The position numbers were made by a program, and so were the translations under genes. A model generated the notes under the pieces. The model was not told the DNA's origin, ran no database searches, and saw only the letters and a list, made by a program, of their open reading frames with translations. A DNA stretch of 64,000 bases, taken from contig JABIFY010000092.1 of assembly GCA_018650465.1 (NCBI GenBank), forward strand, positions 15,477 through 79,476, in the 5' to 3' direction. Position 1 is the first letter of the stretch; every line of letters begins with the position of its first letter. This DNA comes from Alphaproteobacteria bacterium. GTDB taxonomy: Bacteria; Pseudomonadota; Alphaproteobacteria; UBA2966. Positions 6,981-62,995 of the stretch are shown piece by piece.

Positions 6981-7382
6981 ATGGGAAAGCGACACTTATA
7001 TCTGGTTCTGGGCTTTGCCTTTTTTGGCATTGGCGTTGCCGGTGTCGTGCTGCCTGTTTTGCCGACCACGCCCTTTATGTTGCTGGCCCTGTGGGCCTTT
7101 TCCAATAGTTCTGAACGTTTTCATAACTGGCTGTATAACCATCCGAAATTTGGACCATCCTTGCAAAAATGGCGATCACATGGTGTTGTTCCCAGGCGCG
7201 CCAAGGTATCTGCATTAACCGTCATGGCGTGCAGCCTTACATTTTTGACGATGTTTACCGAAGTGCATTGGGCAGTCATGTTTTCAGCCGCAGCGCTCAT
7301 GTTGATCGGTGCAACTTTCTTGATGACGCGACCCAGTCAGATTCCCGTCGAATATGATGATCCGACGGATCGTGTCCTTTAA
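6981..7382 (+). CDS. ybaN: DUF454 inner-membrane protein (YbaN family)
   Basis: GVVLPVLPTTPFMLLALWAFSNSSERFHNWL matches the YbaN signature. Two-TM topology. Confidence 0.8.
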   Translation: MGKRHLYLVLGFAFFGIGVAGVVLPVLPTTPFMLLALWAFSNSSERFHNWLYNHPKFGPSLQKWRSHGVVPRRAKVSALTVMACSLTFLTMFTEVHWAVMFSAAALMLIGATFLMTRPSQIPVEYDDPTDRVL

Positions 7383-7414
7383 ATTTGGTGCAGACAGGTC
7401 TGGCTGGAAGCTGA

Positions 7415-37084: not shown

Positions 37085-37918
37085 ATGACCAGTGGAGTAG
37101 TCGCAAGCGCAATCGTGCCCCATACACCTCGCATGGGCGTTGAGGAATCCGCACCGGATTTTGTCCGTCCACTTATCCAGGGACAACGCGATCTTGGTGA
37201 AGAACTACGCGCGCTCAAACCAGATGTAATTGTCTTGCAGTCCAGCCACTGGGTCAGCACATTTAATTGGTACGTGACTGTTAACAAAATCCATGAAGGT
37301 GTTTGCATCGCCGACGAAGCACCAGACCTTATTCCCGGCTCCCCTTACAAATACGATGGTGATCCAGAATTCGGACAGGCCGTTGTCGATGCGCTCAAAG
37401 GGGCAGGCCTGGCTGTTGGTTTGATGGATTCACCCCATTTCAAATGGGATTATGCCTCATATGTGCCGCTGCATTATCTCGACCCGGAAGCAACGATCCC
37501 GGTCGTCTTGCTGCCATCCGTCATATGTTCTGATCTGAATGAAAACATCAGGGTTGGTGGACTTGTACATGAGGCCGCAGTCAAGGAGGGCAAAAAAGTT
37601 GTTTACCTGGGCAGTTGCGCCCTCGCTCACAAAGTTGTCCGTGGGCCCCATTTGTGGCCATCACAGGAGCATATGGATACAGATAAAAAGCTGATTTCCA
37701 TGTTCTGTGACGGCGAAATAGATGCGTTGATTGATTGGCTGCCTGCTTATGCTCACGATGTTGTCACCGAAATGGGGGGGCGACCCCTTGCCGGGATGTT
37801 GGGGGCAACTGCTGCCATGGCCGGGGATACTGGTCGTGTCCGTGGCAAACAATGGGGTCCCTACGGACAAAGTTCCGGATCTGGCAATGCCAGCATTTGT
37901 GTTTTGCCAGCAGACTAA
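37085..37918 (+). CDS. Class III extradiol ring-cleavage dioxygenase, LigB family (AmnB/HpaD-like)
   Basis: AIVPHTPR N-terminus, PDVIVLQSSHW, WDYASYVPLHYL and LGSCALAHK match LigB-family landmarks. Confidence 0.65.
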   Translation: MTSGVVASAIVPHTPRMGVEESAPDFVRPLIQGQRDLGEELRALKPDVIVLQSSHWVSTFNWYVTVNKIHEGVCIADEAPDLIPGSPYKYDGDPEFGQAVVDALKGAGLAVGLMDSPHFKWDYASYVPLHYLDPEATIPVVLLPSVICSDLNENIRVGGLVHEAAVKEGKKVVYLGSCALAHKVVRGPHLWPSQEHMDTDKKLISMFCDGEIDALIDWLPAYAHDVVTEMGGRPLAGMLGATAAMAGDTGRVRGKQWGPYGQSSGSGNASICVLPAD

Positions 37919-37948
37919 TTCGTAAATAATACAGAACGGAATTTAACC

Positions 37949-40084: not shown

Positions 40085-41565
40085 TGGAACTAAGTACTGT
40101 TCGCCCGATTACCCTTTTGATTGCAGCCATGGGCGGCGAAGGTGGTGGTGTGTTAACCAGCTGGATCGTCAACGCCGCGAGAAGCTGCGGTTTGCCGGTT
40201 CAAGCAACCTCCATCCCCGGAGTGGCCCAGCGCACAGGTGCAACCACATATTATATAGAAATTTGGCCAGAGGTCTTGTCTGTGGGGGCCACAAAACCGG
40301 TGCTGGCATTGGCCCCGGCCATTGGTGAAATAGATATTCTGGCGGCAACAGAATATGTTGAAACGGGTCGCATGATCGAAGCAGGCTATGTCACGCCTGA
40401 TCGCACGACCTTGATTGCGTCAAATCATCGTGTTTTCACTACGCATGAAAAACTGGCGATGGGGGATGGTCGTGCAGATGTCGCGCCGATAAAAAAAGCC
40501 ATTAAAGAGCGCGCGAAAAGAGCCGTTGTCGTCGATATGCGCGAAGCCTCAAGCAAAAGTGGCGCGGTGATCAATGCCGTTATGCTGGGGGCCATATGCG
40601 GTGCCGGTGTCTTGCCAATTACTAGAAATGTTTTTGAAGATGGCATTCAGGCTGAAGGCAAGGCTGTTGAAGCAAACCTGCGGGGCTTTAAAGCCGGACT
40701 TGACGCAGCCACAACCCGCGCAAATTCCGATGAAGTTACTGAGGCTTCGGTCGCCGTCCATTCTGCGCTGTCGCATGCGATCAGCAATGATTTTCCTCTG
40801 GCGGCGCATCAAACCCTGATACATGCGACTACTCGACTGATTGATTATCAGGATATCGCTTATGCGACAGCCTATCTCGAAAAACTGAAGCCTTTCGCGC
40901 AAGGTGATCAGGAACTTTTAGTCAGTGTCGGCCGAAATCTCGCCGTCCGGATGGCCTATGAGGATGTTTACCGTGTTGCCCAGGTGAAAGCCCACCCAGA
41001 CCGCCTGATGCGAATCAGGAAGGAAGCTCGCGCTCAAACCGGTGAGCCAATCAAGGTCAGGGAATTCTTCAAACCGCGACTATCTGAAATCAGTGATGCC
41101 TTGCCCGCAGGGCTGGGGCGTTGGCTTCAATCCCTGGCAGAGCGCAATCCTGGACTTGCGCAAAAATCGTGGCCCATGTTGATCGAAACAACCTCTGTTT
41201 CGGGATATCTGCGAATTCGGGTTTTGTCAGGATTGAGACGCATCCGTCGGTCGACCCTTCGTTTCAAAACAGAAGAACAAGCGATCACGAACTGGTTGGC
41301 GTACGTTGGCAAAGCCATGGAGACAAGTCACAAGGCTGCCATGCAAGTCTCGGAATGTTCCAGTTTGATCAAAGGGTATGGCGATACCCACAAGCGCGGC
41401 GTTAGAAGCTATAGTGCCATCATGAATCAACTCGTTGTGCCTGCCGTTACGGGCGACAAGTTTACTGACCAATTGGCCGCAGATATTTATGCCGCCAGAA
41501 CGGCAGCTTTGGCTGATCCGGAAGGCAAAAACCTGATGGCAGTTCTGGAAGGTATGGCGGCATGA
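40084..41565 (+). CDS. iorB: Indolepyruvate/2-oxoacid:ferredoxin oxidoreductase beta subunit
   Basis: ITLLIAAMGGEGGGVL...ATSIPGVAQRTGATTYYIE matches the IorB / PFOR-gamma fold. Its ATG overlaps the iorA stop (TGATG). Confidence 0.75.
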   Translation: MELSTVRPITLLIAAMGGEGGGVLTSWIVNAARSCGLPVQATSIPGVAQRTGATTYYIEIWPEVLSVGATKPVLALAPAIGEIDILAATEYVETGRMIEAGYVTPDRTTLIASNHRVFTTHEKLAMGDGRADVAPIKKAIKERAKRAVVVDMREASSKSGAVINAVMLGAICGAGVLPITRNVFEDGIQAEGKAVEANLRGFKAGLDAATTRANSDEVTEASVAVHSALSHAISNDFPLAAHQTLIHATTRLIDYQDIAYATAYLEKLKPFAQGDQELLVSVGRNLAVRMAYEDVYRVAQVKAHPDRLMRIRKEARAQTGEPIKVREFFKPRLSEISDALPAGLGRWLQSLAERNPGLAQKSWPMLIETTSVSGYLRIRVLSGLRRIRRSTLRFKTEEQAITNWLAYVGKAMETSHKAAMQVSECSSLIKGYGDTHKRGVRSYSAIMNQLVVPAVTGDKFTDQLAADIYAARTAALADPEGKNLMAVLEGMAA

Positions 41566-42968
41566 CGGGCACGACAACGAACCTCGACACCGGTGAAATG
41601 ATGGCTCTTTATGCCAGCGGCGACTTGTCTCCAGTGACAGTTGCTGAGGATCTGTTTGTGAGTATCGAAAAACAGGAACCGGTTCTGAATGCTTTCCAGG
41701 TGCTGGACCAGGAAGCCGCCCTGTCACAGGCACGTGCCAGTGAAGCACGATGGCACCGCGGTAAACCGATGGGCGATCTTGATGGTGTGCCGGTCAGTAT
41801 CAAGGAACTGATCCTGACAAAAGGCTGGCCAACCCGGCAAGGGTCGCTGACGACGGACGCTGATCAGGCCTGGGATGTTGATGCGCCTGCCGTTGCCCGG
41901 TTACGTGAAGCAGGGGCTGTATTGTTTGGAAAAACTACTTCTCCTGAATTTGGCTGGAAGGGAATAACAGACAGTCCTTTAAGTGGCGTCACCCGAAACC
42001 CGTGGAACCCGGATTATTCCCCTGGAGGTTCCAGTGGCGGGGCAGGAGCTGCCGTCGCTGCCGGTCTCGGGCCCCTGGCCCTGGGGACAGATGGCGGCGG
42101 TTCGATACGAATACCTGCCAGTTATTGCGGTTTGTTCGGCATTAAACCGACATTCGGCCGGGTGCCTTCCTGGCCTCAGGACAGTGCTTATTCGACATTG
42201 GTCAGCAGTGGCCCTCTGTCGCGTAACGTTGCTGACGCGGCCCGCATGTTGAATGTCATTACACGACCGGATTATCGCGACTGGTATGCCTTGCCGCCGG
42301 AAAAAGTGGACTACCTCGATCAACTGTCACGTCGCGTAAAGGGTTTACGTATTGGATACAGTCCATCTCTGGGCGGGGCCAAAGTGACGCCAGAAGTTGC
42401 CGGGATTGTTGCAAAAGCCATTGATACCTTCGCTGATCTGGGTGCTCACGTTGAGATCGTCGACGACATCATTGAGCCCTTGCGCCCCAGGTTTGAAGAC
42501 TATTGGGTTGCCGGATTTGCAGCTATTTATCGCAATGTACCGGTTGGCATGCGGGATCACCTGGACCCTGGTTTCAGGAAACTTGCCGAACGAGGTTTAT
42601 CAGTTGATCTGGAAGGGTATTACAAGGGACTTGCGGCGAGGGTAACGCTGGCAGAAGAATTCAGCCGTTTTTACGAAAATCATGATTTGTTAATGACCCC
42701 GACCATGCCATCCACTGCGCCCAAAGCCGATGTTATCTACCATTCCGAAACATTCGATCGCTGGAATGATGCGGTTCCATATACCGTCCCGTTCAACCTG
42801 ACAGGGTTGCCCGCAGCTTCCGTTCCGGCTGGACTTGATTCAAGGCAACTCCCTGTCGGCCTGCAAATTGTTGGCCCCAGGTTTGCCGAGTTTCGCATTT
42901 TGGCGGCAGCCGCCGCTTTTGAGCAGGTCAGACCATTTCCGACACTGCTGAAACCAGGCAACGACTGA
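41562..42968 (+). CDS. Amidase-signature family amidase
   Basis: GGSSGGAGAAVAAG signature and Ser-cisSer-Lys triad context. 4-nt overlap with iorB. Confidence 0.8.
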   Translation: MTGTTTNLDTGEMMALYASGDLSPVTVAEDLFVSIEKQEPVLNAFQVLDQEAALSQARASEARWHRGKPMGDLDGVPVSIKELILTKGWPTRQGSLTTDADQAWDVDAPAVARLREAGAVLFGKTTSPEFGWKGITDSPLSGVTRNPWNPDYSPGGSSGGAGAAVAAGLGPLALGTDGGGSIRIPASYCGLFGIKPTFGRVPSWPQDSAYSTLVSSGPLSRNVADAARMLNVITRPDYRDWYALPPEKVDYLDQLSRRVKGLRIGYSPSLGGAKVTPEVAGIVAKAIDTFADLGAHVEIVDDIIEPLRPRFEDYWVAGFAAIYRNVPVGMRDHLDPGFRKLAERGLSVDLEGYYKGLAARVTLAEEFSRFYENHDLLMTPTMPSTAPKADVIYHSETFDRWNDAVPYTVPFNLTGLPAASVPAGLDSRQLPVGLQIVGPRFAEFRILAAAAAFEQVRPFPTLLKPGND

Positions 42969-49952: not shown

Positions 49953-50825
49953 ATGATTAATACATTGACTGGGAGGGAAGTTCTGTTGCGTTATTTCCTG
50001 CCGGATACGGTTGCTGAGGCGACCGCCGGACTAGCTGAAAAAAATTATCGGATCGTTGCGGGCGGCACGGATTTTTACCCCGCCCTGGCTGATCAGCCTG
50101 TGCGCGACGACGTCATGGATATTTCCGGCCTGCAAGCTTTGCGCGGCATCGCCCGGGAAACCAAACACACCCGCATTGGTGCCCTTGCCACCTGGACAGA
50201 TATTGCCCGGGCGGAGCTGCCAAATAAATTCCGCGGCCTGCAACTGGCGGCGCGTGAAGTGGGGGCTTTGCAAATACAGAATGTGGCGACCGTTGCAGGC
50301 AATCTTTGCAATGCCTCGCCCGCGGCGGACGGCGTGCCGCCCCTGTTGACCCTGAATGCGCAAGTCGAAATCTCCGCTGCGAACGGCCAGCGTGTTTTAC
50401 CGCTGGATCAGTTCATCCTTGGCAACAGGCGCACGGCGCTGGAGCCAAATGAAATGCTGACCGCCATTTTGATCCCGAATGATGCAGAAGCGGCAAACAG
50501 TCATTTTATGAAACTGGGCTCCCGGCAATATCTGGTTATCTCCTACGTCATGGTGGCGACTTTGCTGGAAGCAGACGATTCCGGCATTATCACCCAGGCC
50601 CGGGTTTCGGTTGGCGCCTGTTCCGAGGTGGCGTGCCGTCTTGCCGATCTTGAAGCGGCACTCGTTGGGCAACCCTTGACAACGACCAGTGCTGTCGTGC
50701 GGCCCGACCATCTGTCCATCCTTGCGCCCATCGATGATATTCGGGCGTCGGCTGATTATCGCCTGGCGGCAGCGTTGGAATATACCAGGCGCAGCCTTTC
50801 GGCCTGTACGGAGGGTCTGTTATGA
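49953..50825 (+). CDS. Xanthine-dehydrogenase-family FAD-binding subunit (CoxM/XdhB-like)
   Basis: RIVAGGTDFYP FAD-binding motif and C-terminal CO-dehydrogenase flavoprotein domain. Confidence 0.8.
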   Translation: MINTLTGREVLLRYFLPDTVAEATAGLAEKNYRIVAGGTDFYPALADQPVRDDVMDISGLQALRGIARETKHTRIGALATWTDIARAELPNKFRGLQLAAREVGALQIQNVATVAGNLCNASPAADGVPPLLTLNAQVEISAANGQRVLPLDQFILGNRRTALEPNEMLTAILIPNDAEAANSHFMKLGSRQYLVISYVMVATLLEADDSGIITQARVSVGACSEVACRLADLEAALVGQPLTTTSAVVRPDHLSILAPIDDIRASADYRLAAALEYTRRSLSACTEGLL

Positions 50826-53581
50826 CATCACCTGGTACGAGTGGGTCTGTCGACTTTTCCCTGAACGGAAAACCGGTTTCAGTTTCCGTTGATCCCACGC
50901 GTCGGCTGTCACAAGTGCTGCGCGAAGACCTTGGTCAGACCGGCACCAAAATAGGTTGTAATGCGGGCGACTGCGGGGCCTGTACGGTGTTGGCCGATGG
51001 CCTTTCGGTTTGTGCCTGCATGGTACCTGTCGGGCGGTTGCAGGGTGCGCAAATCCAGACCGTGGAGGGATTGGCTGAAGCGGGCATTCCCAATCGACTG
51101 CAAAAAGCATTTTTGCATTTTGGCGCCGCCCAGTGTGGCATTTGTACGCCGGGTATGTTGATGGCGGCCACCGCATTGCTGGCGGAAAACGCCCGTCCCG
51201 ATGAAGCCCAGGTAAAAGACGCGCTGGGCGGTGTGCTTTGCCGCTGTACAGGATATCGCAAGATCATCCAGGCGGTGATGGCTGCCCATGATTTTGATGC
51301 CGAACCTTTGCGGGCTGAAACCGGCACGGCAGTGGGCACTCGCCTTAACCGGCTTGATGGTGAAGAAAAGGTTCTCGGCACAGATTTGTTTGGTGATGAC
51401 GTTGCTGGACAAGGTGCACTCGTCCTCAAGGTTATTCGCTCACCTTATCATCGGGCGTCATTTTCCTTCGGGGATACAGGCGGGTTACTGGTGACAACAC
51501 CTGGCCTGATCAAAATCCTGACCGCCAGCGATATTCCGGGCAGAAATTTACATGGCGTTATTCCGGATACTGTCGATCAACCAGTCTTTGCCGTGGCTGA
51601 AACCCGTTTCAAGGGCGAGGCGATTGCTGCCGTGGTTGGGGATGCCGACGCCGTGGACAAGTTTGATGTGTCGGACTTTCCCGTGACCTGGACGGAACGA
51701 CCCGCGTACCTGACGCCGGAAAAGGCTTTGGCTGACAATGCACCCCTGATACATGCCAACCGGCCCGGAAATATCCTGATGAACGGCATCGTGCAGCGCG
51801 GTGATCTGGCGGCCGGCTTCGCGCACAAAGACGCCACGATTGCCGAAGGCGATTTCATCACCGGCTTTGTTGAGCACGGTTATATTGAACCGGAAGCGGG
51901 CCTGGCCCAACGTGTGGGCGACCGACTTGAAATGCATGTTTGCACCCAGTCGCCCTATATGGATCGCGATGACACGGCAGCTATTCTTGGTATCGCCAAA
52001 GAAGATGTGCGCATCATACCGACGGCGGTTGGCGGTGGCTTTGGCAGCAAGCTTGATCTCTCGGTCCAGCCCTATATCGCACTGGCCGCCTGGTTGCTGG
52101 ATCGCCCTGTGCGCATGACCTACAGCCGCCAGGAAACCATGATGTCGACAACCAAACGACATCCTTCAGCCATCAAGGCCAGAATCTCTGCAGACAAACA
52201 GGGCAAGCTGTTATCCATGGATTTCAACGGCGTGTTCAACACCGGGGCCTATGCTTCGTGGGGACCGACGGTTGGCAATCGGGTGCCGGTACATGCCTCG
52301 GGTCCTTATATATATGATGCCTATCGCGCCCGCAGTCAGGCGGTGCATACCCATTGCGTGCCGTCCGGTGCCTTCCGGGGATTTGGTGTGCCGCAATCTT
52401 CCATTGTGCAGGAAACCCTGTTTGATGAACTGGCGGACAAGCTGGCCATTGATCGGCTGGACTTTCGTTTGCGCAACGCCCTGGTGAACGGTGCAACGAC
52501 GGTTTGTGGCCAGGTCTTCAGCGAAGGTGTGGGCATCAAGGATTGCCTGCAAAGTCTGAAACCCCATTGGGACCGGGCCTTGTCTGAAGCTGATGGTTTC
52601 AATGCCGCATCAGATGGCAGCTTGCGACGCGGTGTGGGTGTGGCGGGCATGTGGTACGGCTGTGGCAACACGTCGCTGCCCAATCCGTCGACCATCAAGG
52701 TTGCCATTCGCAATGATGGCCAGGTGGTTCTGTTCCAGGGTGCTGTGGATGTGGGGCAGGGGGCCAACACCGTTATCACACAAATCTGTGCTGATGCCGC
52801 AGGCCTGGACATCCTCAATTTTTCTCTTGTCTATGGTGATACCGATCTAACGGCGGACGCGGGTAAAACCTCAGCCTCACGCCAAACCTTTATCAGTGGC
52901 AAGGCGTCATACCTCGCGGGCCAGGATTTGCGCAAAAAAATCCTGCGTATGGTCAATGCCAGTGAAGATGCGCGCCTCGCCATTAATGGCAGCAAAATTA
53001 CCGCCATCGATACAGCCGGGCGAAATGATATCGATCTGGCTGCCTTGCCGGCGGATGAAGATGGATTTGTCTTTACTGGTGAAGGAACCTTTGATCCACC
53101 TACCGTGGCCCTCGATGAAAATGGCCAGGGTGAACCCTATGCGGTTTTTGGATATGGCGCACATATGATGGAACTGGAAGTCGATACCCGCCTGGGCACG
53201 GTACGCTTGATCAAGCTGACGGCCGCCCATGATGTGGGCAAAGCCATTAACCCAACCCTGATTGAAGGCCAGATCGAAGGCGGTGCAGCCCAGGGACTGG
53301 GCCTCGCTCTGATGGAAGAATTTGTGCCGGGCCGCACCGAAAATCTGCACGATTATTTGATTCCGACCATTGGCGATGTGCCCGAGGTGGAATCGATCCT
53401 TGTTGAAGTGCCCAACGCACATGGTCCTTACGGGGCCAAAGGCATAGGTGAACAAGTTCTGATCCCGACTGCGCCAGCCATCCTCAATGCCATCCGACAT
53501 GCCACGGGTGCGGTTTTACGGGATATGCCCGCAACGCCAGAAAAAGTGCGCAATGCAGTTTTGCGGGCGAAAGGGAATTAG
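50822..53581 (+). CDS. Xanthine-dehydrogenase-family fused [2Fe-2S] + molybdopterin-binding subunit
   Basis: N-terminal plant-type and second 2Fe-2S Cys motifs (CNAGDCGACTV; CGICTPG). Large aldehyde-oxidase/XDH Mo-binding body. 4-nt overlap with the FAD subunit. Confidence 0.8.
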   Translation: MTSPGTSGSVDFSLNGKPVSVSVDPTRRLSQVLREDLGQTGTKIGCNAGDCGACTVLADGLSVCACMVPVGRLQGAQIQTVEGLAEAGIPNRLQKAFLHFGAAQCGICTPGMLMAATALLAENARPDEAQVKDALGGVLCRCTGYRKIIQAVMAAHDFDAEPLRAETGTAVGTRLNRLDGEEKVLGTDLFGDDVAGQGALVLKVIRSPYHRASFSFGDTGGLLVTTPGLIKILTASDIPGRNLHGVIPDTVDQPVFAVAETRFKGEAIAAVVGDADAVDKFDVSDFPVTWTERPAYLTPEKALADNAPLIHANRPGNILMNGIVQRGDLAAGFAHKDATIAEGDFITGFVEHGYIEPEAGLAQRVGDRLEMHVCTQSPYMDRDDTAAILGIAKEDVRIIPTAVGGGFGSKLDLSVQPYIALAAWLLDRPVRMTYSRQETMMSTTKRHPSAIKARISADKQGKLLSMDFNGVFNTGAYASWGPTVGNRVPVHASGPYIYDAYRARSQAVHTHCVPSGAFRGFGVPQSSIVQETLFDELADKLAIDRLDFRLRNALVNGATTVCGQVFSEGVGIKDCLQSLKPHWDRALSEADGFNAASDGSLRRGVGVAGMWYGCGNTSLPNPSTIKVAIRNDGQVVLFQGAVDVGQGANTVITQICADAAGLDILNFSLVYGDTDLTADAGKTSASRQTFISGKASYLAGQDLRKKILRMVNASEDARLAINGSKITAIDTAGRNDIDLAALPADEDGFVFTGEGTFDPPTVALDENGQGEPYAVFGYGAHMMELEVDTRLGTVRLIKLTAAHDVGKAINPTLIEGQIEGGAAQGLGLALMEEFVPGRTENLHDYLIPTIGDVPEVESILVEVPNAHGPYGAKGIGEQVLIPTAPAILNAIRHATGAVLRDMPATPEKVRNAVLRAKGN

Positions 53582-53583
53582 TG

Positions 53584-55080
53584 ATGCCAGATGACAAAGA
53601 AGACCTCGTCGTTTGTGATGCCTGCCCGGTACGTTGTCGCATCAAACAAGGCCGCCCCGGTGCGTGCGATCGATATGCAAATGTTGATGGCCTGCTGACC
53701 CGCGTTGACCCGCTAACCGTGGTTGAACGGGCCGAAACCCACGGCACACCCCTGGTGCCTTTCCTGAAAAATGATCAGGAATGGAGCGGTGATCTGGTGC
53801 AGTCTGAAAACACCTTTGTCACTGCTGTGGGTGCTGGCACCACCTATCCCGACTATAAACCGGCCCCTTTCATAGTCTCCAGCGAGGTGGACGGTGTGGA
53901 TATGGTGACCGTGGTCACAGAAGGCATCTACAGCTACTGCGGCGTCAAGATCAAGGTCGATACAGATCGCCACCTGGGCCATGAAGCCGCCTCAGTACGG
54001 GTCGACGGCGAAGTCGTTGGCCATGTCACGACAGGTGAATACGGATCACAAATGATGTCCCTCGGCGGTGTTGCCCATCTGACCGGCGGCAGTAAAAAAG
54101 AAGGCCGCGTGACCTGTCAGACCCTGATGGATTTGTGCAATTGCAAGCCGGTCAAGCTGACGATTGATGACGGCGTGTCGATCATTGTTGAGGCCGGCAA
54201 GGCCCCGATCATTGATGACGTGACGGAGGAACGCATGCGCGTTGGTTGTGGCTCCGCCGCAATCGGTATGTTCGCCATGCAGTGGCAGCCCCTGGTCGAC
54301 GAAGTCGTTGTGGTAGATGATCACATCACCGGCGTGATGTCAGAACACGAAGCCGGAAAAGTTCTGGATGTACCGCCCACGGGTATTTCCATCAACGGCC
54401 GTCGCTCGACCCCCGGTCGCTATTTCAAGGTCGCCGAACCAGGTACGGGTTGGGGTGGTACAGATATCAGCGATCCCCTGTCGATCCTCAACGACTTTAA
54501 GCCAGCAGATGCCAAACCAGGCACAACCCTGTTGATGGTCTCGACCACCGGCGAACATTATGCTTATTTTGTGCTGGACGATAATCTGAAACCTGTCGAA
54601 GAACCCTTGCCGGATGTCTTGATGGCCTCGGTCGAACGGGTGCGGGAAAATTGTGAACCGGCATTATGTTCTGTGTTGTTCATTGGCGGTGCCGGTGGCT
54701 CGCTTCGGGCAGGCGTTACCGAAAATCCCGTCAAGCTGACCATGTCCGTGAAGGACGCCTTGACCAATGTTACCAGCGGCGGAGCGGAAACCTTTGTCTG
54801 GCCTGGCGGGGGCATTACCTACATGGTCGACGTGACGCGCATGCCTGAAAATTCCTTTGGTTATGTCCCCACACCGGCCATCGTCGCCCCCATCGAATTT
54901 TCCATGCGTCTTGAAGATTACGCGGCCCTGGGTGGCCATATGGAGTCGATTGTGCCTTTGGCCGAGGTGCTAAAGGATCCGAACCTTCGTCCTGTGGAAC
55001 AGGGCGAAAGTTCCTGGCCCATGGAAAAGAGCCAGTATAAATGGCCAGATGAGCAAAAAGACGAGCGCAAAGATGAATAG
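53584..55080 (+). CDS. Cys-rich conserved protein, possible 6-hydroxynicotinate-reductase (Hnr)-like
   Basis: N-terminal CDACPVRCRIKQGRPGACDRY Cys cluster. No other fold recognisable by eye. Starts 3 nt after the Mo-subunit stop. Confidence 0.45.
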   Translation: MPDDKEDLVVCDACPVRCRIKQGRPGACDRYANVDGLLTRVDPLTVVERAETHGTPLVPFLKNDQEWSGDLVQSENTFVTAVGAGTTYPDYKPAPFIVSSEVDGVDMVTVVTEGIYSYCGVKIKVDTDRHLGHEAASVRVDGEVVGHVTTGEYGSQMMSLGGVAHLTGGSKKEGRVTCQTLMDLCNCKPVKLTIDDGVSIIVEAGKAPIIDDVTEERMRVGCGSAAIGMFAMQWQPLVDEVVVVDDHITGVMSEHEAGKVLDVPPTGISINGRRSTPGRYFKVAEPGTGWGGTDISDPLSILNDFKPADAKPGTTLLMVSTTGEHYAYFVLDDNLKPVEEPLPDVLMASVERVRENCEPALCSVLFIGGAGGSLRAGVTENPVKLTMSVKDALTNVTSGGAETFVWPGGGITYMVDVTRMPENSFGYVPTPAIVAPIEFSMRLEDYAALGGHMESIVPLAEVLKDPNLRPVEQGESSWPMEKSQYKWPDEQKDERKDE

Positions 55081-56173
55081 CGCTTTTGCCCGCATTTTGC
55101 CCGACGGCAAACGCCTGCATTTGCAGCAAGGCCCCATTGATCTGGTGATCGATGCAGATGGCGATGAGGCTGAAGTTGCCTTGGCTTTTGAGCAGGCGAT
55201 GCGGGCCTTCGAGCCTGTGTTGACGGATTTGGTAGCGGAATTGGAAGTGTTGCGGAAGGTCCTGGCGCCACACTCCTCTACCGTCATGCGCGGGCTTGAC
55301 CCGCGTACCCACGCCTTCGGGGAACAGGTCTGCCAGAAGGCGAATTTCCTGAGTTCTGCATCATCCTCAAATGACCAGAGTTCTGCGCCTGAAGATAAAT
55401 GCCGTCAAGACGTGGGTACCCGTGTCAAGCACGGGCATGACGGACGTGGGGTGCAGTTTTACGATCCGAATAAATCCAATCCTGTCGCGAACATCATGAC
55501 ATCCGCCGCAGCCAACTTCGCAGCCCACAACGTCAGCCCCATGATCGCCGTCGCCGGGTCCGTCGCCGACTACATCCTGGATAAAATGCTGGCAGGGCGA
55601 ACGCTGAATCGAGTCTACGTCAATAACGGTGGCGATATATCACTGTATCTGAACGACGGCCACAGCTTTGATATCGGTATCGTCGACCGGGTTGATGCAC
55701 CCGAAATTTCCGCCACGGCTCATATCACATCCAATGACACCGTTCGTGGCGTCGCGACCAGCGGCTGGAGAGGACGCAGTTTCTCGCTTGGTGTGGCTGA
55801 CGCGGTAACCGTCCTTGCCCCGACGGCGGCTCTGGCAGACGCTGCCGCAACTCTGATCGCCAATGAAGTTGATCCCGGCCCTTGTTTTGAAATTTCCCGC
55901 ACGCCGGCCCATGACCTGGACCCCGACAGTGACCTCGGCGCACGACTGGTGACAACCGATGTCCAGCCTTTGTCGGCCCGGCAAAAAGACCTGGCCCTGC
56001 AACGCGGTCAGGACCTGGCCCGGACTTTTGTTCGGGACGGTTTGATCACGGCTGCTGCCTTGTCCCTGCAGGGCAGTACGCGCATGGCCGGGGACCTCAA
56101 TCCCAAAATTAGTCTCAATAACAACGTTGCCCCAAACAATCCTGATCCGGAGAAAAAATATGCCCGCGGTTGA
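55073..56173 (+). CDS. Conserved hypothetical protein (C-terminal region possibly UPF0280/ApbE-like)
   Basis: ATG overlaps the upstream stop by 8 nt. Segment PMIAVAGSVADYILDKM...VYVNNGGDISL is weakly reminiscent of UPF0280. Confidence 0.35.
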   Translation: MNSAFARILPDGKRLHLQQGPIDLVIDADGDEAEVALAFEQAMRAFEPVLTDLVAELEVLRKVLAPHSSTVMRGLDPRTHAFGEQVCQKANFLSSASSSNDQSSAPEDKCRQDVGTRVKHGHDGRGVQFYDPNKSNPVANIMTSAAANFAAHNVSPMIAVAGSVADYILDKMLAGRTLNRVYVNNGGDISLYLNDGHSFDIGIVDRVDAPEISATAHITSNDTVRGVATSGWRGRSFSLGVADAVTVLAPTAALADAAATLIANEVDPGPCFEISRTPAHDLDPDSDLGARLVTTDVQPLSARQKDLALQRGQDLARTFVRDGLITAAALSLQGSTRMAGDLNPKISLNNNVAPNNPDPEKKYARG

Positions 56174-56744
56174 ACTCAGAAAACAAATCATATCCGTCGA
56201 GGAAACCTGGCACGAAGGTGGCCCGGTTGCACAAACACCCAACCGCCGGGCCAGTGGCATGATCATCATCAAAAATCCCTTCGCCGGAAAATATGTGGAA
56301 GATATCCAGCCTTTCATTGAAGATCTGAAACCCTTTGGTCTGGCCCTGGCGACTGCTGTGCTGGATGCTCTGGGTGGCGATGGTTCTGCCATTGAAGGTT
56401 ATGGCAAGGGTGCCATCATCGGCGAGGCCGGAGAGCTGGAGCATGGTGCCCTGTGGCATCCCGCCGGTGGTTATGCCATGCGGGCCCTGTTGGATGGCAC
56501 CAAGGCCATTGTTGCCTCAACCAAAAAAGTTGGTGGGGTCGGGGCCCGGCTGGATGTACCGATCACCCATACCAATGCATCTTATGTGCGCAGTCATTTT
56601 GATGCCATGGAAGTGGGCTGCAATGATGCGCCGCGCGCCAACGAGCTGGCCTACATACTGGTCATGAGCACCGGACCCCGCGTCCACAGCCGGTCTGGCG
56701 GTCTGGAAGTAGCCGACGTTAAAGGAGAGGATGGATTAAAATGA
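56160..56744 (+). CDS. Amino-acid-synthesis family (PF06684/DUF1185-like) protein, paralogue 1
   Basis: Shared motifs with the downstream paralogue: NPFAG, GELEH, YVRSHFDAMEV, NDAPRANE. Confidence 0.45.
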   Translation: MPAVELRKQIISVEETWHEGGPVAQTPNRRASGMIIIKNPFAGKYVEDIQPFIEDLKPFGLALATAVLDALGGDGSAIEGYGKGAIIGEAGELEHGALWHPAGGYAMRALLDGTKAIVASTKKVGGVGARLDVPITHTNASYVRSHFDAMEVGCNDAPRANELAYILVMSTGPRVHSRSGGLEVADVKGEDGLK

Positions 56745-57328
56745 CTACTGCAATAATTCGCAAGATCATCACTGTTGTCGACGAAACTCACATTGAAATG
56801 GGCAAGGCCATCTCGCCCGCAACCCGGCGGGCTGCGGCCATCGCCGTCATCGCCAACCCCTTTGCGGGCAGCTATACGGAAGACCTCGATCCTCTGATGG
56901 AAATCGGTGCGGAGCTGGGCGGTATATTGGGCGCGCGCGCCGTTGAGGCTTTGGGGATCACGCCGGAGCAGGCCGAGAGCTATGGCAAAGCGGCCATCGT
57001 TGGTGAAAATGGTGAGTTGGAACATGCAGCTGCAATTTTACATCCCAAACTGGGTGCCCCCTTGCGCAAGGCCGTCGAAAAGGGTGCTGCTCTGGTGCCT
57101 TCTGCCAAGAAGATGGGCGGTCCTGGTACGCCCATGGATGTGCCCCTCGGTCACAAGGAAGCCGCCTATGTGCGCAGCCATTTCGATGCCATGGAAGTGC
57201 GCGTCAATGATGCCCCGCGGGCCAATGAAATTCTGGTCGCCGTTTGTGTCACGGACAGCGGGCGGCCTTTGCCAAGGGTCGGTGGTCTGACCCATGAAGA
57301 TGCCGAAGGCAAAGACGGCTTGCGCTAG
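56741..57328 (+). CDS. Amino-acid-synthesis family (PF06684/DUF1185-like) protein, paralogue 2
   Basis: About 45-50% identical to paralogue 1 over the full length. 4-nt overlap. Confidence 0.45.
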   Translation: MTTAIIRKIITVVDETHIEMGKAISPATRRAAAIAVIANPFAGSYTEDLDPLMEIGAELGGILGARAVEALGITPEQAESYGKAAIVGENGELEHAAAILHPKLGAPLRKAVEKGAALVPSAKKMGGPGTPMDVPLGHKEAAYVRSHFDAMEVRVNDAPRANEILVAVCVTDSGRPLPRVGGLTHEDAEGKDGLR

Positions 57329-57342
57329 GCTGGACCCCGAAT

Positions 57343-58401
57343 ATGCAATTCATCCATAACAGCTGGTACGTGGCAGGTTGGTCGAAAGAGTTCACGCGTG
57401 AGCTAAGCAAAGCCACGATCCTTGGCGAAAACATCGTCTTCTACCGCACTGAAGCCGGCACCGTTACGGCCCTGGAAGATCGTTGTCCGCATAAACTGTT
57501 GCCTTTGTCCGAAGGTCGGTTGATCGGTGATGATTTGCAGTGCGGTTATCACGGCGTGACCTTTGGCTGCGACGGTAAATGTGTGCGGGTGCCGGGCCAA
57601 TCAGTGCTGCCTAAAAGCGCCTGGGTGCGCCACTTCCCCACGTTCGAGCGTCACAATATTGTCTGGATCTGGATGGGTGATGAGGGCAAAGCGGATGAAA
57701 GTCTGGTCTTTGATTTGCCGGAACTTTCCAGTCCTGACTATGCGCCGCACCAGGGCAATCCGCTGCCTTATGCCTCAAACTATCTGAATGTGGCCGACAA
57801 TCTGTGCGACCCGGCCCATGTCAGTTTCGTGCACCCGACAACGCTGGGCAATCCTGAGATGGAGGATTTGCCTATTGATTCCGAAATGACGGGGGATGGC
57901 ACAGTGATTACCTCGCGCTGGACCCGCGATACCCCGCCTGTGGGTGTGTTTCAGGGACTGTCGGGCTTTGGCGTGAATTTCCGGGGCAACGTAGATCGCT
58001 GGCAATATTACATCATGAATGTGCCGTGTGTGGCCGTGATCGATTTTGGCAGTGCTGAGGTCTCGCAAGAAATAACTTATGACCGACGGGCGGAAGGTGT
58101 GCATATATATGCCATTCATTTTCTGACGCCCGTGGACGAGTTCCGCACGATTGATCGTTGGATGCATGTGCGAAATTTTGCTCTGCAGGACAAAGCCGTC
58201 GGTGGTGCCATGAATGATCTTTTTAATGTGGCCTTCGCCGAAGATAAAGTTATCCTCGAGGCGATCCAGATTGAGGAACGCCGCCCCAGATCAGCTGAGC
58301 AAGAACAACGACGGCCCTTGCGCATTGCTATCGACAAGGGATCAAACCTCTATCGTCGTCGTATTGATGAGTTGATCAAACAGGAACAGGTGAATGACTG
58401 A
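57343..58401 (+). CDS. Rieske non-haem iron oxygenase alpha subunit, VanA/GbcA/NdmA family
   Basis: Rieske CPHK...CGYHG, mononuclear-Fe motif DNLCDPAHVSFVH. Colinear with the vanillate O-demethylase oxygenase N-terminus (WYVAG...IVFYR...ALEDRCPH). Confidence 0.75.
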   Translation: MQFIHNSWYVAGWSKEFTRELSKATILGENIVFYRTEAGTVTALEDRCPHKLLPLSEGRLIGDDLQCGYHGVTFGCDGKCVRVPGQSVLPKSAWVRHFPTFERHNIVWIWMGDEGKADESLVFDLPELSSPDYAPHQGNPLPYASNYLNVADNLCDPAHVSFVHPTTLGNPEMEDLPIDSEMTGDGTVITSRWTRDTPPVGVFQGLSGFGVNFRGNVDRWQYYIMNVPCVAVIDFGSAEVSQEITYDRRAEGVHIYAIHFLTPVDEFRTIDRWMHVRNFALQDKAVGGAMNDLFNVAFAEDKVILEAIQIEERRPRSAEQEQRRPLRIAIDKGSNLYRRRIDELIKQEQVND

Positions 58402-58819
58402 AGATCGGAAAGGCTACGCCCTGGACGATCAGGTCGGGTTTATCCTGCGCGAAGTTGGCCAGCGCCACAGCACGATTTTTGCGGGCAAGATGATTGAGCG
58501 CCTCACGCCCACCCAGTTTGCCGCCATGGCCAAGCTGATCGAGGTCGGTGATTGTTCGCAAAATCAACTGGGCCGCCACACAGCGATGGATGTGGCCACG
58601 ATCAAGGGCGTTGTGGATCGTTTGGCCAAGCGCGGATTTGTGGACAGTCATGCCGACGACAAAGACGCCCGCCGCCGTATCGTTTGCCTGACCGATACGG
58701 GTCGCGATGTGGCCTTGCGGGCCATCCAGGTTGCGGGAGACATCACCCGGGAAACATTGAAACCCTTGTCAGAAGCCGGGCAAAAACAGCTGCTGAAGCT
58801 GTTGAGGGAATTACGTTAA
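58394..58819 (+). CDS. MarR family transcriptional regulator
   Basis: Winged-helix segment LTPTQFAAMAKL...QNQLGRHTAMDVATIKGVVDRLAKRGFV...DARRR. Confidence 0.75.
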   Translation: MTEDRKGYALDDQVGFILREVGQRHSTIFAGKMIERLTPTQFAAMAKLIEVGDCSQNQLGRHTAMDVATIKGVVDRLAKRGFVDSHADDKDARRRIVCLTDTGRDVALRAIQVAGDITRETLKPLSEAGQKQLLKLLRELR

Positions 58820-58867: not shown

Positions 58868-59974
58868 ATGAAAACACGTGCAGCCATCGCCACCCAGGCC
58901 GGAAAACCGCTTGTTATTGAAGAAGTCGATCTGGACGGACCACAGCCCGGCGAGGTTCTGGTTGAAATCAAGGCGACAGGCGTTTGTCACACGGATGCTT
59001 TCACCCTGTCTGGCGATGATCCGGAAGGGGCCTTTCCGGCGATCCTGGGTCACGAAGGGGCCGGTATTGTGCGGGAAATTGGCAAAGGCGTAACTTCCGT
59101 GGAAGTGGGCGATCATGTGATCCCGCTTTACACGCCCGAGTGCCGGGAATGCGAATACTGCCTCAATCACAAGACCAATCTTTGTCAGTGCATTCGGGAA
59201 ACCCAGGGTGCGGGGGTCATGCCCGATGGCTCCAGCCGCTTTTCCCTGAACGGCAAAAAAATCCTGCATTATATGGGCTGTTCTACCTTTTCGAATTTTA
59301 CCGTGTTGCCGGAAATTGCCGTCGCCAAGGTGCGTAAAGACGCGCCGTTTGAACAAATTTGTTATATCGGTTGCGGTGTCACAACCGGCGTCGGGGCCGT
59401 CGCCCTGGATGCCAAGGTCGAGCCCGGCTCCAACGTCGTGGTCTTTGGCCTCGGCGGCATTGGCCTGAATGTGGTGCAGGGTGCGCGCATGGTGGGGGCC
59501 AACAAGATTATCGGCGTCGATCTGAATGATGGCCGGGTGGAGTTGGCGAAAAAATTCGGCATGACCGACTTCATCAACCCCAGTGAATGCGACAATGTTG
59601 TCGAAGCCATCATGGATATGACCAATGGGGGTGCTGATTATTCCTTCGAATGTATCGGCAATACCATGACCATGCGTCAGGCCCTGGAATGCTGTCACAA
59701 GGGTTGGGGCGAAAGCATCATCATTGGCGTCGCTGGTGCCGGTCAGGAAATTTCCACGCGCCCGTTCCAGCTGGTTACCGGCCGGGTCTGGCGTGGTACA
59801 GCCTTTGGCGGCGCCCGTGGCCGGACTGATGTGCCAAAGATTGTCGACTGGTACATGGACGGCAAAATCAACATCGACGACTTGATCACCCACACCATGC
59901 CGTTGGATGAAATCAACAATGCTTTCGATCTGATGCACAAGGGCGAGTCAATTCGCTCTGTTGTTTTGTATTAG
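58868..59974 (+). CDS. frmA: S-(hydroxymethyl)glutathione dehydrogenase / class III alcohol dehydrogenase
   Basis: Colinear with ADH3 ([50 protein letters not shown]). Confidence 0.85.
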
Positions 59975-60014
59975 GAACGATTATTTTTGGCGACTACTCT
60001 GGGGGGAAAGAACA

Positions 60015-61172
60015 ATGTCTAAACTTGTCATCAAAAATATCGGCCTGGTGCTCAGTGGCGATCTGGATAATCCGGTGTTGGATGCGGACACTATCGCCAC
60101 AGAAGATGGCAAGATCACCGGCATTGGGGCTGAGAAAGACTTTGATCAGGAAGGGGCCACGGTCGTTGATGCCAAAGGCACGACTGTCACCCCCGGTCTG
60201 ATCGACAGCCATGTGCACCCGGTCGCGGGCGACTGGACCCCACGTCAAAGCCAGCTCAACTGGATCGATTCAAGCTTGCATGGTGGCGTCACCACCATGA
60301 TCTCGGCCGGCGAGGTGCACTATCCAGGACGGGCCAAGGATATCGTTGGCCTGAAAGCGCTGGCGATCACGGCGCAGCGAGCCTTTGATAATCTGCGCCC
60401 CTCGGGGGTCAAGGTGCATGCCGGTGCGCCGGTCATTGAACAGGGCATGGTCGAACAGGATTTCAAAGAGTTGGCCGAGGCTGGCGTAAAACTGCTGGGT
60501 GAAATTGGCCTGGGCAGCGTCAAGGCCGGGGCGGAGGCCAAACAGATGGTCACCTGGGCCCGAAAATATGGCATTCAAAGTACCATCCACACCGGTGGCC
60601 CTTCCATTCCAGGCTCTGGCCTGATCGACAAGGACGTGGTGCTGGAAGCTGATGCCGATATCATCGGCCACATCAATGGCGGGCACACGGCTTTGCCTGA
60701 CGACCAGATCACCTGTCTTTGTGAAAGCTGCGGTCGTGGCATCGAAATCGTGCATAACGGCAACGAGCGCTCCGCTCTGCTGGCCCTGAATTGCGCTCGT
60801 GAACTGAAGCAGATGGAACGCGTTATCCTTGGCACGGACGGCCCGGCTGGTTCCGGTGTACAGCCCTTGGGAATTTTGCGTATGGTGTCCATGTTGTCAG
60901 CCCTGGGCCAGGTGCCCGCAGAAATCGCCCTGTGTTTTGCCACCGGCAATACGGCCCGCATGCGTGATCTGAATTGCGGCATTATCGAAGTCGGACGTGA
61001 GGCCGATTTTGTGATTATGGACCGGGCCCAGCATTCTCCGGCGGAAACCATTCTGGAGAGTATCCAGCTTGGTGATCTGCCGGGCGTCGGCATGACCATT
61101 ATTGATGGTGTCATCCGCAGCGAACGCAGCCGCAATACCCCACCCGCCAACACCCTGCCCGAAGTAATCTAG
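60015..61172 (+). CDS. Amidohydrolase-superfamily protein, enamidase-like
   Basis: MSKLVIKNIGLVLSGD N-terminus. Metal-binding HVHPV. Size and layout are consistent with the single-domain amidohydrolase group that includes enamidase. Strong SD (GGGGGGAAAG) upstream. Confidence 0.55.
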   Translation: MSKLVIKNIGLVLSGDLDNPVLDADTIATEDGKITGIGAEKDFDQEGATVVDAKGTTVTPGLIDSHVHPVAGDWTPRQSQLNWIDSSLHGGVTTMISAGEVHYPGRAKDIVGLKALAITAQRAFDNLRPSGVKVHAGAPVIEQGMVEQDFKELAEAGVKLLGEIGLGSVKAGAEAKQMVTWARKYGIQSTIHTGGPSIPGSGLIDKDVVLEADADIIGHINGGHTALPDDQITCLCESCGRGIEIVHNGNERSALLALNCARELKQMERVILGTDGPAGSGVQPLGILRMVSMLSALGQVPAEIALCFATGNTARMRDLNCGIIEVGREADFVIMDRAQHSPAETILESIQLGDLPGVGMTIIDGVIRSERSRNTPPANTLPEVI

Positions 61173-61285: not shown

Positions 61286-62995
61286 ATGCGTAAACATTTG
61301 ACCCTCAATCTTGCCACCCGCGACGCCAGCAGCAAAACTGTTGAAGGCGAAGACCTGGCCCGTGCCGGGCGCTGGTTGATCGCCCGCACGTTGCTGGACG
61401 AAGGTGCGGCGACCGTTGATCCCCTGTCGCCAGGTAACCCGCTGATTTTTTCTGCCGGTCCGTTTGCAGGCACCAACTTCTCCAATGCCAACCGTTTGTC
61501 TGTAGGCTGCAAAAGCCCGCTGACCGGTGGCATCAAGGAAGCGAACTCTGGTGGTACATTCGCTTACGCCATGGGCCAGAACGAAATGTCCGGCATTACC
61601 TTCTGCGAGGCTTCGGACGATTGGGTTGTCATCCACATCAACAAAGAAGGCGATGTAACTTACGATGATGCCACGCCTTACATGGGCAAAAGCAACTTCG
61701 AAGCCGCCGATATGCTGATCGAAAAATACGGCAAGAAAATCTCCTATGCCCTGTGCGGTCCCGTCGGCGAATACCAGGGCCTGATGTCGGCCATCGCTTT
61801 CCCCGATCCTGAAGGTGGCCCAACCCGCTTTGCCGCCCGTGGTGGCGTGGGCGCCGTGATGGGCAGCAAAAAGGTCAAGGCTGTGATCATCGAACAGATC
61901 AAGATGCCAACCTTTGTGGACCGTAAAAAGGTCATGAGCCACGTCAAGGACTATGGTGCCAAACTGGGCGAGGAAGCCGCTATTCAAACTTTTGCTGATT
62001 ACGGCACCGCCATTGTGGCCGACCTCACCAACAAGATCGGCGGGCTGCCGGTGAACAATTTCAGCAAGGGCCAGCAGGTCAACTCCAAGGAACAAACCTT
62101 CGAGATGGGCGGCACCTTTATTCACGACCTGAACAAATCCCGTGGCGGCGAAACGACCCACGCCTGCATGCCGGGCTGCTTGATCCGTTGCAGCAATAAC
62201 TTTCATGGTGAAGACGGCGAATCCATTACCGCCCCGCTGGAATATGAAACCATCGGCTTGATGGGTACCAACTGTGGTCTGACCCACCCCGACCAGGTGG
62301 CGCGGGTCAACCAGGTGGCCAATGATTTGGGCATCGATACCATCGAAATCGGTTGCACCATCGGCGTACTGATGGAAGCAGGCGAGGGCGAATTTGGTGA
62401 CGAAGCCTTTATGATGCAGGTGCTGGAAGATATCCGCGCTGGCAATGAAAAGGGCAAACTATATGCGCAAGGCACCCAGCGGGTCGGCGAACATTTTAAC
62501 GTCAAACGCATTCCCGCCATCAAGAAACAAGGCATCAGTGCCTATGACCCGCGTGTGATCGAGGTCACAGGTATGAGCATGATGTTAACCGCCCAGGGCG
62601 CGGATCATACGGCCGGAAACATGCCGGGCTATCCTTGCAAAGACAAGACCACCGAAGACCTGATGGCCGTCAGCATGGACAGCCAAATGAACTGCGCCGC
62701 CGCCGACAGCCTCGGCCTGTGCATCTTTGGTCGCTCGGTGACCGAAACCAATTCCCAGCTGATCGTCGATGCCATCAACGCCGCCTTTGGCACCAGCCTG
62801 GAGCCATCCTTCGTGCCGAAACTGGGCACTGCCGCCCTGAAACTGGAAGACGAGTTCAACCGCGCCGCTGGCTTCACCGCAGCCGACGACGAACTGCCTG
62901 ACTTCTTCAACACCGAAGCGCTTGCCCCCACCGGCAAAACCAACCGCCACCAGGTGGGCGACCTGCATACCTTCCGCGAAAACTGGTGGAATTAA
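61286..62995 (+). CDS. Aldehyde:ferredoxin oxidoreductase (AOR) family tungsto/molybdo-pterin enzyme
   Basis: AOR N-terminal domain (LIFSAGPFAGT, SVGCKSPLTGG, RGGVGAVMGSKKVKAVII). 4Fe-4S and pterin region (HACMPGCLIRCSN, LEYETIGLMGTNCGL). Confidence 0.75.
   Translation: MRKHLTLNLATRDASSKTVEGEDLARAGRWLIARTLLDEGAATVDPLSPGNPLIFSAGPFAGTNFSNANRLSVGCKSPLTGGIKEANSGGTFAYAMGQNEMSGITFCEASDDWVVIHINKEGDVTYDDATPYMGKSNFEAADMLIEKYGKKISYALCGPVGEYQGLMSAIAFPDPEGGPTRFAARGGVGAVMGSKKVKAVIIEQIKMPTFVDRKKVMSHVKDYGAKLGEEAAIQTFADYGTAIVADLTNKIGGLPVNNFSKGQQVNSKEQTFEMGGTFIHDLNKSRGGETTHACMPGCLIRCSNNFHGEDGESITAPLEYETIGLMGTNCGLTHPDQVARVNQVANDLGIDTIEIGCTIGVLMEAGEGEFGDEAFMMQVLEDIRAGNEKGKLYAQGTQRVGEHFNVKRIPAIKKQGISAYDPRVIEVTGMSMMLTAQGADHTAGNMPGYPCKDKTTEDLMAVSMDSQMNCAAADSLGLCIFGRSVTETNSQLIVDAINAAFGTSLEPSFVPKLGTAALKLEDEFNRAAGFTAADDELPDFFNTEALAPTGKTNRHQVGDLHTFRENWWN

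Follow-up and report, generated by a model that had tools for sequence, protein, structure and literature searches.

The 64,000-nucleotide stretch analysed here (hereafter the window) belongs to an alphaproteobacterial genome (lineage UBA2966; assembly GCA_018650465.1, contig JABIFY010000092.1, positions 15,477 to 79,476 of the forward strand) and carries at 53584-55080, next to the genes of a molybdenum (Mo) hydroxylase, a reading frame whose product had originally been described as a Cys-rich protein of unrecognised fold. We conclude that this gene, hnr, very probably specifies a 6-hydroxynicotinate reductase (Hnr, EC 1.3.7.1) of proteobacterial form, the enzyme of the second step of the reductive nicotinate (vitamin B3) pathway already described in bacteria, and we consider what the adjoining ApbE-like gene might contribute to its maturation. 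The features of the two genes are as follows.

53584..55080 (+): hnr, 498 amino acids, probable 6-hydroxynicotinate reductase orthologue of the type without a ferredoxin domain, clean translation
53614..53667 (+): codons of Cys11, Cys14, Cys18 and Cys28 (CxxCxxxC-x9-C), predicted iron-sulphur (Fe-S) cluster site
53941..54156 (+): small beta-barrel, residues 120-191, weakly resembling the C-terminal barrel of GcvT
54247..54249 (+): codon of Cys222 (RVGCGSA), 99% conserved, candidate catalytic acid or flavin attachment site
54652..54654 (+): codon of Cys357 (ENCEP), 95% conserved
55073..56173 (+): ApbE-like/UPF0280 (DVU1097-family) gene, 366 amino acids (374 from the ATG at 55049), candidate maturation factor of Hnr

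The hnr frame runs from an ATG at 53584 to a TAG at 55078-55080 and encodes 498 amino acids, not the 499 of the original prediction, whose extra residue stems from an in-frame GTG at 53581. We place the start at this ATG because an identical protein of 498 residues (P0001, 100% identity) is recorded on at least 23 metagenomic contigs; a Shine-Dalgarno-like AAAGGG lies 5' of it at 53570-53575. The position directly 3' of the Mo hydroxylase and the overlap with the next gene, both of which had been predicted, hold on closer reading: the stop codon of the 919-residue Mo/Fe-S subunit (TAG, 53579-53581) leaves a gap of 2 nucleotides before hnr, and the ApbE-like gene begins either at the ATG at 55073 (ATGAATAG, 8-nucleotide overlap with hnr) or at the ATG at 55049 (32-nucleotide overlap), each of these starts being used by gene callers. 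Database searches with the protein gave more than 8000 matches, clustering at 50% identity gave 1241 clusters, and a scan of species-representative genomes with an alphaproteobacterial Hnr alignment as query returned at least 598 confirmed matching stretches, which argues that hnr is a real and widespread gene and no chance reading frame.

To our knowledge, the Hnr of Eubacterium barkeri is the sole characterised member of the family, and it was not among the matches of a search with the Clostridia-type homologue P0137. As its stand-in for sequence comparison we used the Hnr encoded on a 20-kb contig, L091, which was reached through E. barkeri enamidase (PDB 2VUN): the enamidase sequence was reconstructed from an alignment and used as a query, and the contig of the match was taken. 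L091 represents an E. barkeri-type cluster, since the enamidase that it encodes shares 97% identity with 2VUN, and between its NdhL and 3HRD_A, a chain of E. barkeri nicotinate dehydrogenase, the figure is about 98%. The contig contains the whole nicotinate fermentation cluster in the order LysR regulator, hnr, ApbE-like, hgd, ndhFSLM, transporter, ena, AA_synth, mgm, mii, MutL-like, dml, hmd, dmdAB, the names having been assigned by reading Pfam domains against the published cluster. Window Hnr aligns with L091 Hnr at 43% identity over 451 amino acids (residues 6-456 against 63-492, E = 7e-103), a value that agrees with the 42% given for E. barkeri Hnr and a Bradyrhizobiaceae homologue by the study that described a conserved proteobacterial cluster (PMC3511419). 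Homologues from Bradyrhizobium share 71-73% identity with the window protein, and the name 6-hydroxynicotinate reductase is attached to identical or near-identical proteins in NCBI, JGI and UniRef as well as to many relatives at 68-86% identity in public sources; NCBIfam holds no match for Hnr, and the name is backed by no Pfam or NCBIfam model. The original prediction had ventured that the protein might be 6-hydroxynicotinate-reductase-like, and the alignment with L091 Hnr, the public names and the pathway neighbours described below now identify it as an Hnr orthologue, an assignment to which we give a probability of roughly 0.85.

The predicted N-terminal cysteine cluster proved to be C11-x2-C14-x3-C18-x9-C28, whose four residues are invariant in an alignment of 27 sequences and 98% conserved across 259 full-length relatives. 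To call the protein Cys-rich was an overstatement, as it has 11 cysteines in 498 residues and just six of them are conserved (C11, C14, C18, C28, C222 and C357), the other five reaching at most 51% conservation among the same 259 relatives. In full-length relatives at greater distance (32-46% identity), most of them from anaerobes, the core is preceded by an additional domain of about 55 residues with two CxxCxxCxxxCP motifs, and the family profile matches solved 2x[4Fe-4S] ferredoxins through this N-terminal domain only, so that it is a genuine ferredoxin domain; the name 'PreA subunit' given by JGI to some Hnr relatives reflects this domain alone. The domain occurs in 126 of the 259 family members and is absent from window Hnr and all its close relatives; it is the mark of one branch of the family and not of the whole.

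Alhapel and co-workers reportedly found in 2006 that E. barkeri Hnr contains one [2Fe-2S] cluster, two [4Fe-4S] clusters and a covalently bound flavin, and proteobacterial homologues are said to have been noticed in the same paper too. Because the ferredoxin domain would account for both [4Fe-4S] clusters, the four-cysteine motif is by subtraction the likely [2Fe-2S] site; with the ferredoxin domain absent, window Hnr would lack two of the three reported clusters and would hold one [2Fe-2S] cluster and a flavin. A variant without the ferredoxin domain has already been seen by homology in Proteobacteria (PMC3511419). Other members are fused to a GltD-like NADPH oxidoreductase, which in P0128 (982 amino acids) interrupts the Hnr core midway, separating the barrel region from the C-terminal half, and in P0134 (969 amino acids) lies at the N terminus. 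Some lineages thus seem to supply Hnr with electrons from NAD(P)H, and from the fusions and the ferredoxin domain together we conclude that different lineages wire different electron inputs onto one Hnr core.

That the bulk of the protein matches no common fold, as had been noted at the outset, was upheld by Pfam, NCBIfam and PDB searches alike. The only Pfam match of Hnr is a sub-threshold one of residues 120-191 to GCV_T_C (PF08669; 23.9 bits against a cut-off of 25.9), a sequence search of PDB gave no match, and a profile search of PDB gave none for the core (best E = 0.49). An AlphaFold2 model built from the 27-sequence alignment reached a mean predicted local distance difference test score of 82.7 and a predicted template modelling score of 0.79, with residues 49-77 and 470-498 disordered, and a Foldseek search of PDB with this model returned no match at E <= 0.001. 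The confidently predicted model therefore supports a core fold unlike that of any PDB structure.

The neighbours that place hnr in a nicotinate pathway, together with the remaining genes of the cluster, are the following.

49953..50825 (+): FAD-binding subunit of a putative nicotinate dehydrogenase (NdhF-like), Pfam FAD_binding_5 and CO_deh_flav_C
50822..53581 (+): fused [2Fe-2S]/molybdopterin subunit of the same enzyme (NdhS, L and M in one chain), 919 amino acids, Pfam Fer2, Fer2_2 and MoCoBD_1/2
56160..56744 (+): AA_synth (DUF1185) paralogue 1, Pfam PF06684, E = 7e-66
56741..57328 (+): AA_synth (DUF1185) paralogue 2, Pfam PF06684, E = 2e-74; PDB 2qtp, E = 1.7e-95
57343-58401, 58394-58819 and 58868-59974: VanA-type Rieske oxygenase, MarR regulator and glutathione-dependent formaldehyde dehydrogenase
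60015..61172 (+): enamidase orthologue (gene call; PDB 2VUN), third pathway step, hydrolysis of 1,4,5,6-tetrahydro-6-oxonicotinate (THON)
61286-62995: gene of the aldehyde:ferredoxin oxidoreductase (AFOR) family, adjoining the enamidase gene

The Mo subunit matches chains A, B and D of E. barkeri nicotinate dehydrogenase (3HRD) with 222, 221 and 136 bits (L, M and S, in that order), a summed score of 579 bits against 380 for the best other structure. It is 40% identical to NdhM and retains, in MWYG, the equivalent of Tyr13 of NdhM, a residue modelled as binding the ring nitrogen of nicotinate (PMC5746545). About 5 kb downstream of hnr, an amidohydrolase reading frame of 403 amino acids (59961-61172) matches E. 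barkeri enamidase 2VUN over its full length (E = 2.7e-114).

We next considered the DNA around hnr in 80 species-representative genomes with a close relative of the window protein (Alphaproteobacteria, Granulosicoccaceae and Acidobacteriota). The ApbE-like gene lies immediately 3' of hnr on the same strand in 72 of the 80 loci and a copy of AA_synth is present in 74. Directly 5' of hnr, 40 loci have a hydroxylase of the window's FAD plus Fe-S/Mo type, the FAD subunit gene directly preceding that of the Mo subunit, and a further arrangement, found in 30, features a divergently transcribed NicAB-type Mo-cytochrome c hydroxylase, as in Bradyrhizobium betae (L039, 5718-9736), where a small [2Fe-2S] subunit accompanies a Mo-cytochrome c subunit of 1175 amino acids; at such loci the block of hnr, ApbE-like gene and AA_synth is unchanged and is followed by a branched-chain-amino-acid-type ABC transporter. 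One downstream pathway has recruited two unrelated types of hydroxylase. Co-occurrence with genes of the xanthine dehydrogenase family, which had been proposed as a check, is borne out by a Mo hydroxylase of either type within 10 kb of hnr in 70/80 loci (about half of the ten loci without one are on truncated contigs), and an enamidase gene falls within the same distance in 49/80. The accessory genes are far rarer: the Rieske gene is found in seven of the 80 loci, formaldehyde dehydrogenase in none, and AFOR homologues in two (L061 and L071).

The same survey bears on the idea that Hnr, far from being a separate enzyme, serves the Mo hydroxylase as an additional Fe-S subunit for electron transfer. 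The gap of 2 nucleotides between the hydroxylase gene and hnr, and the equally tight layout in half of the loci (40/80), are what such a subunit would lead one to expect, but the block of hnr, ApbE-like gene and AA_synth stays intact in the 30 loci where the hydroxylase is a divergent NicAB-type enzyme, hnr and ndhFSLM are two genes apart in L091, and hnr of the anaerobe type adjoins enamidase genes with no hydroxylase beside it. E. barkeri Hnr, moreover, is said to have been active when purified by itself, and we regard the subunit explanation as highly improbable. The original suggestion that the protein is a reductase partner of the Mo hydroxylase accordingly stands in the sense that Hnr is the next enzyme of the pathway and takes over the product of the hydroxylase, and falls in the sense of a hydroxylase subunit.

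Several observations nevertheless weigh against the assignment or against parts of the mechanism set out below. The Rieske oxygenase and formaldehyde dehydrogenase genes in the cluster raise the possibility that the starting substrate is not free nicotinate; the Hnr sequence contains no recognisable flavin-binding motif; a motif scan of the 64-kb window found no reading frame with a ferredoxin motif; and we know of no biochemistry for any Hnr without a ferredoxin domain. Along these lines, Hnr might be a reductase of the same family that acts on another pyridone or N-heterocyclic carboxylate, in a cluster that degrades a related compound, such as one formed from trigonelline or another methylated pyridine. 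The Rieske, MarR and formaldehyde dehydrogenase genes between AA_synth and the enamidase gene would fit a demethylation step, substrate specificity is unreadable from the Hnr family without a structure, and the Mo subunit reaches none of the NCBIfam equivalog cut-offs. Set against this, all three core enzymes have their orthologues among the nicotinate enzymes of E. barkeri and the Tyr13 equivalent of NdhM is kept, the frequencies of the Rieske and formaldehyde dehydrogenase genes mark them as accessory, and a demethylase producing nicotinate would lead into this Hnr reaction and not take its place. We therefore consider a different substrate for Hnr quite unlikely. As a separate observation, the Rieske and formaldehyde dehydrogenase genes led us to guess at a demethylase that yields nicotinate and formaldehyde, for example from trigonelline.

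With Hnr taken as 6-hydroxynicotinate reductase, the upstream Mo enzyme would convert nicotinate to 6-hydroxynicotinate, Hnr would reduce the C4=C5 bond of its pyridone tautomer to give THON, and the enamidase would open the ring of THON to release 2-formylglutarate and ammonia. Within Hnr, we propose that single electrons reach the Fe-S cluster at Cys11, Cys14, Cys18 and Cys28 from an external donor of low potential, that these pass to a flavin in the novel-fold core, and that the reduced flavin would transfer a hydride to C4 while a conserved acid protonates C5. Cys222 is the candidate for this acid, on the model of dihydropyrimidine dehydrogenase, which reduces a C=C bond in conjugation with the carbonyl of a ring amide, passes electrons from Fe-S clusters to flavin and uses its active-site cysteine as proton donor. 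The likeness would be one of outline chemistry only, as the two enzymes are unrelated and we detected no similarity of sequence or structure between them. The ApbE-like protein, in turn, may mature Hnr by attaching its flavin covalently.

The donor of window Hnr, which has no built-in 2x[4Fe-4S] ferredoxin domain, may be ferredoxin or another carrier. Where the FAD-containing hydroxylase and hnr are tightly coupled, as they are in 40/80 loci, the two electrons released by nicotinate hydroxylation could return to Hnr. We rejected as a general rule that the hydroxylase always passes electrons straight to Hnr, for the hydroxylase of 30/80 loci is of the NicAB type, which is linked to cytochrome c, and is encoded on the other strand. 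The AFOR-family enzyme could oxidise an aldehyde of the pathway and supply reduced ferredoxin to Hnr, although its gene is present in only two of the 80 loci.

The ApbE-like protein scores 324.9 bits against the NCBIfam equivalog NF003322 (cut-off 290), a model without assigned function, and is listed under PF27030 (AbpE_bact) in precomputed Pfam results; another Pfam search of the window proteins gave no match for it. Its L091 orthologue, 41% identical over 157 amino acids, shows a faint match to canonical ApbE (PF02424), and a profile of 24 ApbE-like sequences matched in PDB only the uncharacterised DVU1097 structure 2o34 (E = 3.4e-12). By our own reading, the GGDI, ATSG and ADAAAT motifs of the window protein are shared in kind with ApbE/Ftp, from which it differs in being cytoplasmic, with no lipoprotein signal. 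In the 24 aligned orthologues S230 (in ATSG) and D256 (in ADAAAT) are invariant and could match the Ser and Asp of the ApbE Ser-His-Asp arrangement, in which His acts as the general base and flavin mononucleotide (FMN) is attached to a Ser or Thr of the target protein (PMC12052999). The ApbE-like gene also directly follows hnr in L091 and in L004/L005. The protein owes its length of 366 amino acids, against the usual 300 or so, to a low-complexity insertion of about 62 residues (SSASSSNDQSSAPEDKCRQDVGTRVKHGHDGRG; residues about 68-130, nucleotides about 55275-55460) that is absent from 23 of 23 aligned orthologues.

A role in the maturation of Hnr is attractive because ApbE enzymes attach FMN covalently and Hnr reportedly has a covalent flavin, and we put forward, tentatively and as the less probable side of the matter, that the ApbE-like protein attaches the flavin of Hnr. 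What speaks against it is that canonical ApbE structures gave no significant match to the 24-sequence profile, that no His is invariant between S230 and D256, where the general base of ApbE would stand, in the 24 orthologues, that a regular-expression search found no Dxx[ST]GA[ST] acceptor motif in Hnr, and that some anaerobe-type loci have no ApbE-like gene in the DNA examined (e.g. L007, 21 kb). Conserved Ser and Thr residues of Hnr in the 259-member alignment are those at positions 86, 109, 112, 117, 275, 276, 293, 397, 430 and 440. A literature search on UPF0280, DUF375 and DVU1097 found nothing relevant, and we know of no member of the UPF0280/DVU1097 family with an established function.

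Part of the same evidence could be read as a stable two-subunit enzyme in which the ApbE-like protein holds a flavin or nucleotide non-covalently. The overlap of the two genes and their adjacency in 72/80 loci and in L091 would suit such a complex, as would the ApbE-like protein without an obvious counterpart of the catalytic His and an Hnr without a canonical flavinylation motif. Yet an ApbE-like gene is missing from the vicinity of hnr at some loci, and among the 150 best representatives no fusion of Hnr with an ApbE-like protein was found although fusions with GltD-like reductases are present. Purified E. barkeri Hnr is, in addition, said to be a homo-oligomer of one polypeptide of about 54 kDa. 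We judge the two-subunit arrangement unlikely.

Returning to the ApbE-like protein as a maturation factor, we can formulate a wider proposal, possible but doubtful as a whole: Hnr would represent a structurally new class of Fe-S flavoenzymes whose covalent flavin is installed at a non-canonical site by a dedicated cytoplasmic ApbE-like protein of the UPF0280/DVU1097 family, a pairing kept from the fermentation cluster of Firmicutes to aerobic Proteobacteria and Acidobacteriota, and whose electrons come, in members such as window Hnr, from a donor other than the ferredoxin route of E. barkeri Hnr. If true, this would be the first function for UPF0280 and would mean that enzymatic flavinylation reaches beyond the known motif. 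As far as we know, the nature of the covalent flavin of Hnr has not been reported.

Compared with E. barkeri, by way of L091, the window is alike in the homology of the Hnr core over its full length, with CxxCxxxC-x9-C, Cys222 and Cys357 in common, in the nicotinate dehydrogenase and enamidase genes of the neighbourhood, in an ApbE-like gene directly 3' of hnr and in the presence of AA_synth in the cluster. It differs in that window Hnr lacks the ferredoxin domain of about 55 amino acids and that the S, L and M parts of the hydroxylase are fused in one chain; E. barkeri is a fermenting Firmicute, whereas the window comes from an aerobic-type marine alphaproteobacterial metagenome-assembled genome. 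The cluster described for Azorhizobium caulinodans ORS571, Bradyrhizobium japonicum USDA110 and Bradyrhizobiaceae SG-6C includes the two genes that we identify here as ApbE-like and AA_synth (PMC3511419). In A. caulinodans ORS571 it comprises AZC_2790-2804. Bradyrhizobium-type loci have a divergent NicAB-type hydroxylase and an ABC transporter, in contrast to the co-directional FAD plus Fe-S/Mo hydroxylase of the window, which also has two copies of AA_synth and the extra Rieske, MarR, formaldehyde dehydrogenase and AFOR genes.

The reductive nicotinate pathway and the proteobacterial cluster were described in 2006 and 2012, and the window protein was already correctly named in public databases. 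The family itself has been neglected: it is widespread, in soil Bradyrhizobium, marine Rhodobacterales and Acidobacteriota, yet has neither a Pfam or NCBIfam model nor a solved structure, and the missing ferredoxin domain makes one ask by what route aerobes feed low-potential electrons to the Hnr step.

AA_synth (DUF1185) proteins have a chorismate-mutase-like fold, and their 'amino-acid synthesis' label is based solely on adjoining ABC transporter genes (PMC2954203). The second paralogue of the window is 51% identical to the AA_synth of L091 (10703-11284), which is encoded directly 3' of the enamidase gene, and at the Clostridia-type locus L007 a RidA-family (Ribonuc_L-PSP) gene (7217-7606) lies directly 5' of two enamidase genes. 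The position of AA_synth near the enamidase gene, and RidA in its place, suggest a role in handling the enamine/imine or 2-formylglutarate that results from ring opening. A link to the homarine (hom) operon, which came to mind from the likeness of AA_synth to the SPO0826 entry 2qtp, was rejected, as the hom genes are different ones (TgnAB-like, SPO3188-3192). Elsewhere in the window, 5' of a sensor kinase gene, the region 37085-42968 encodes a LigB-type extradiol dioxygenase subunit, an amidase and a two-gene oxidoreductase-like pair that resembles indolepyruvate/2-oxoacid:ferredoxin oxidoreductase (domains TPP, POR and DUF6537); this region may be a separate module for the catabolism of aromatic or heterocyclic compounds and a possible source of reduced ferredoxin.

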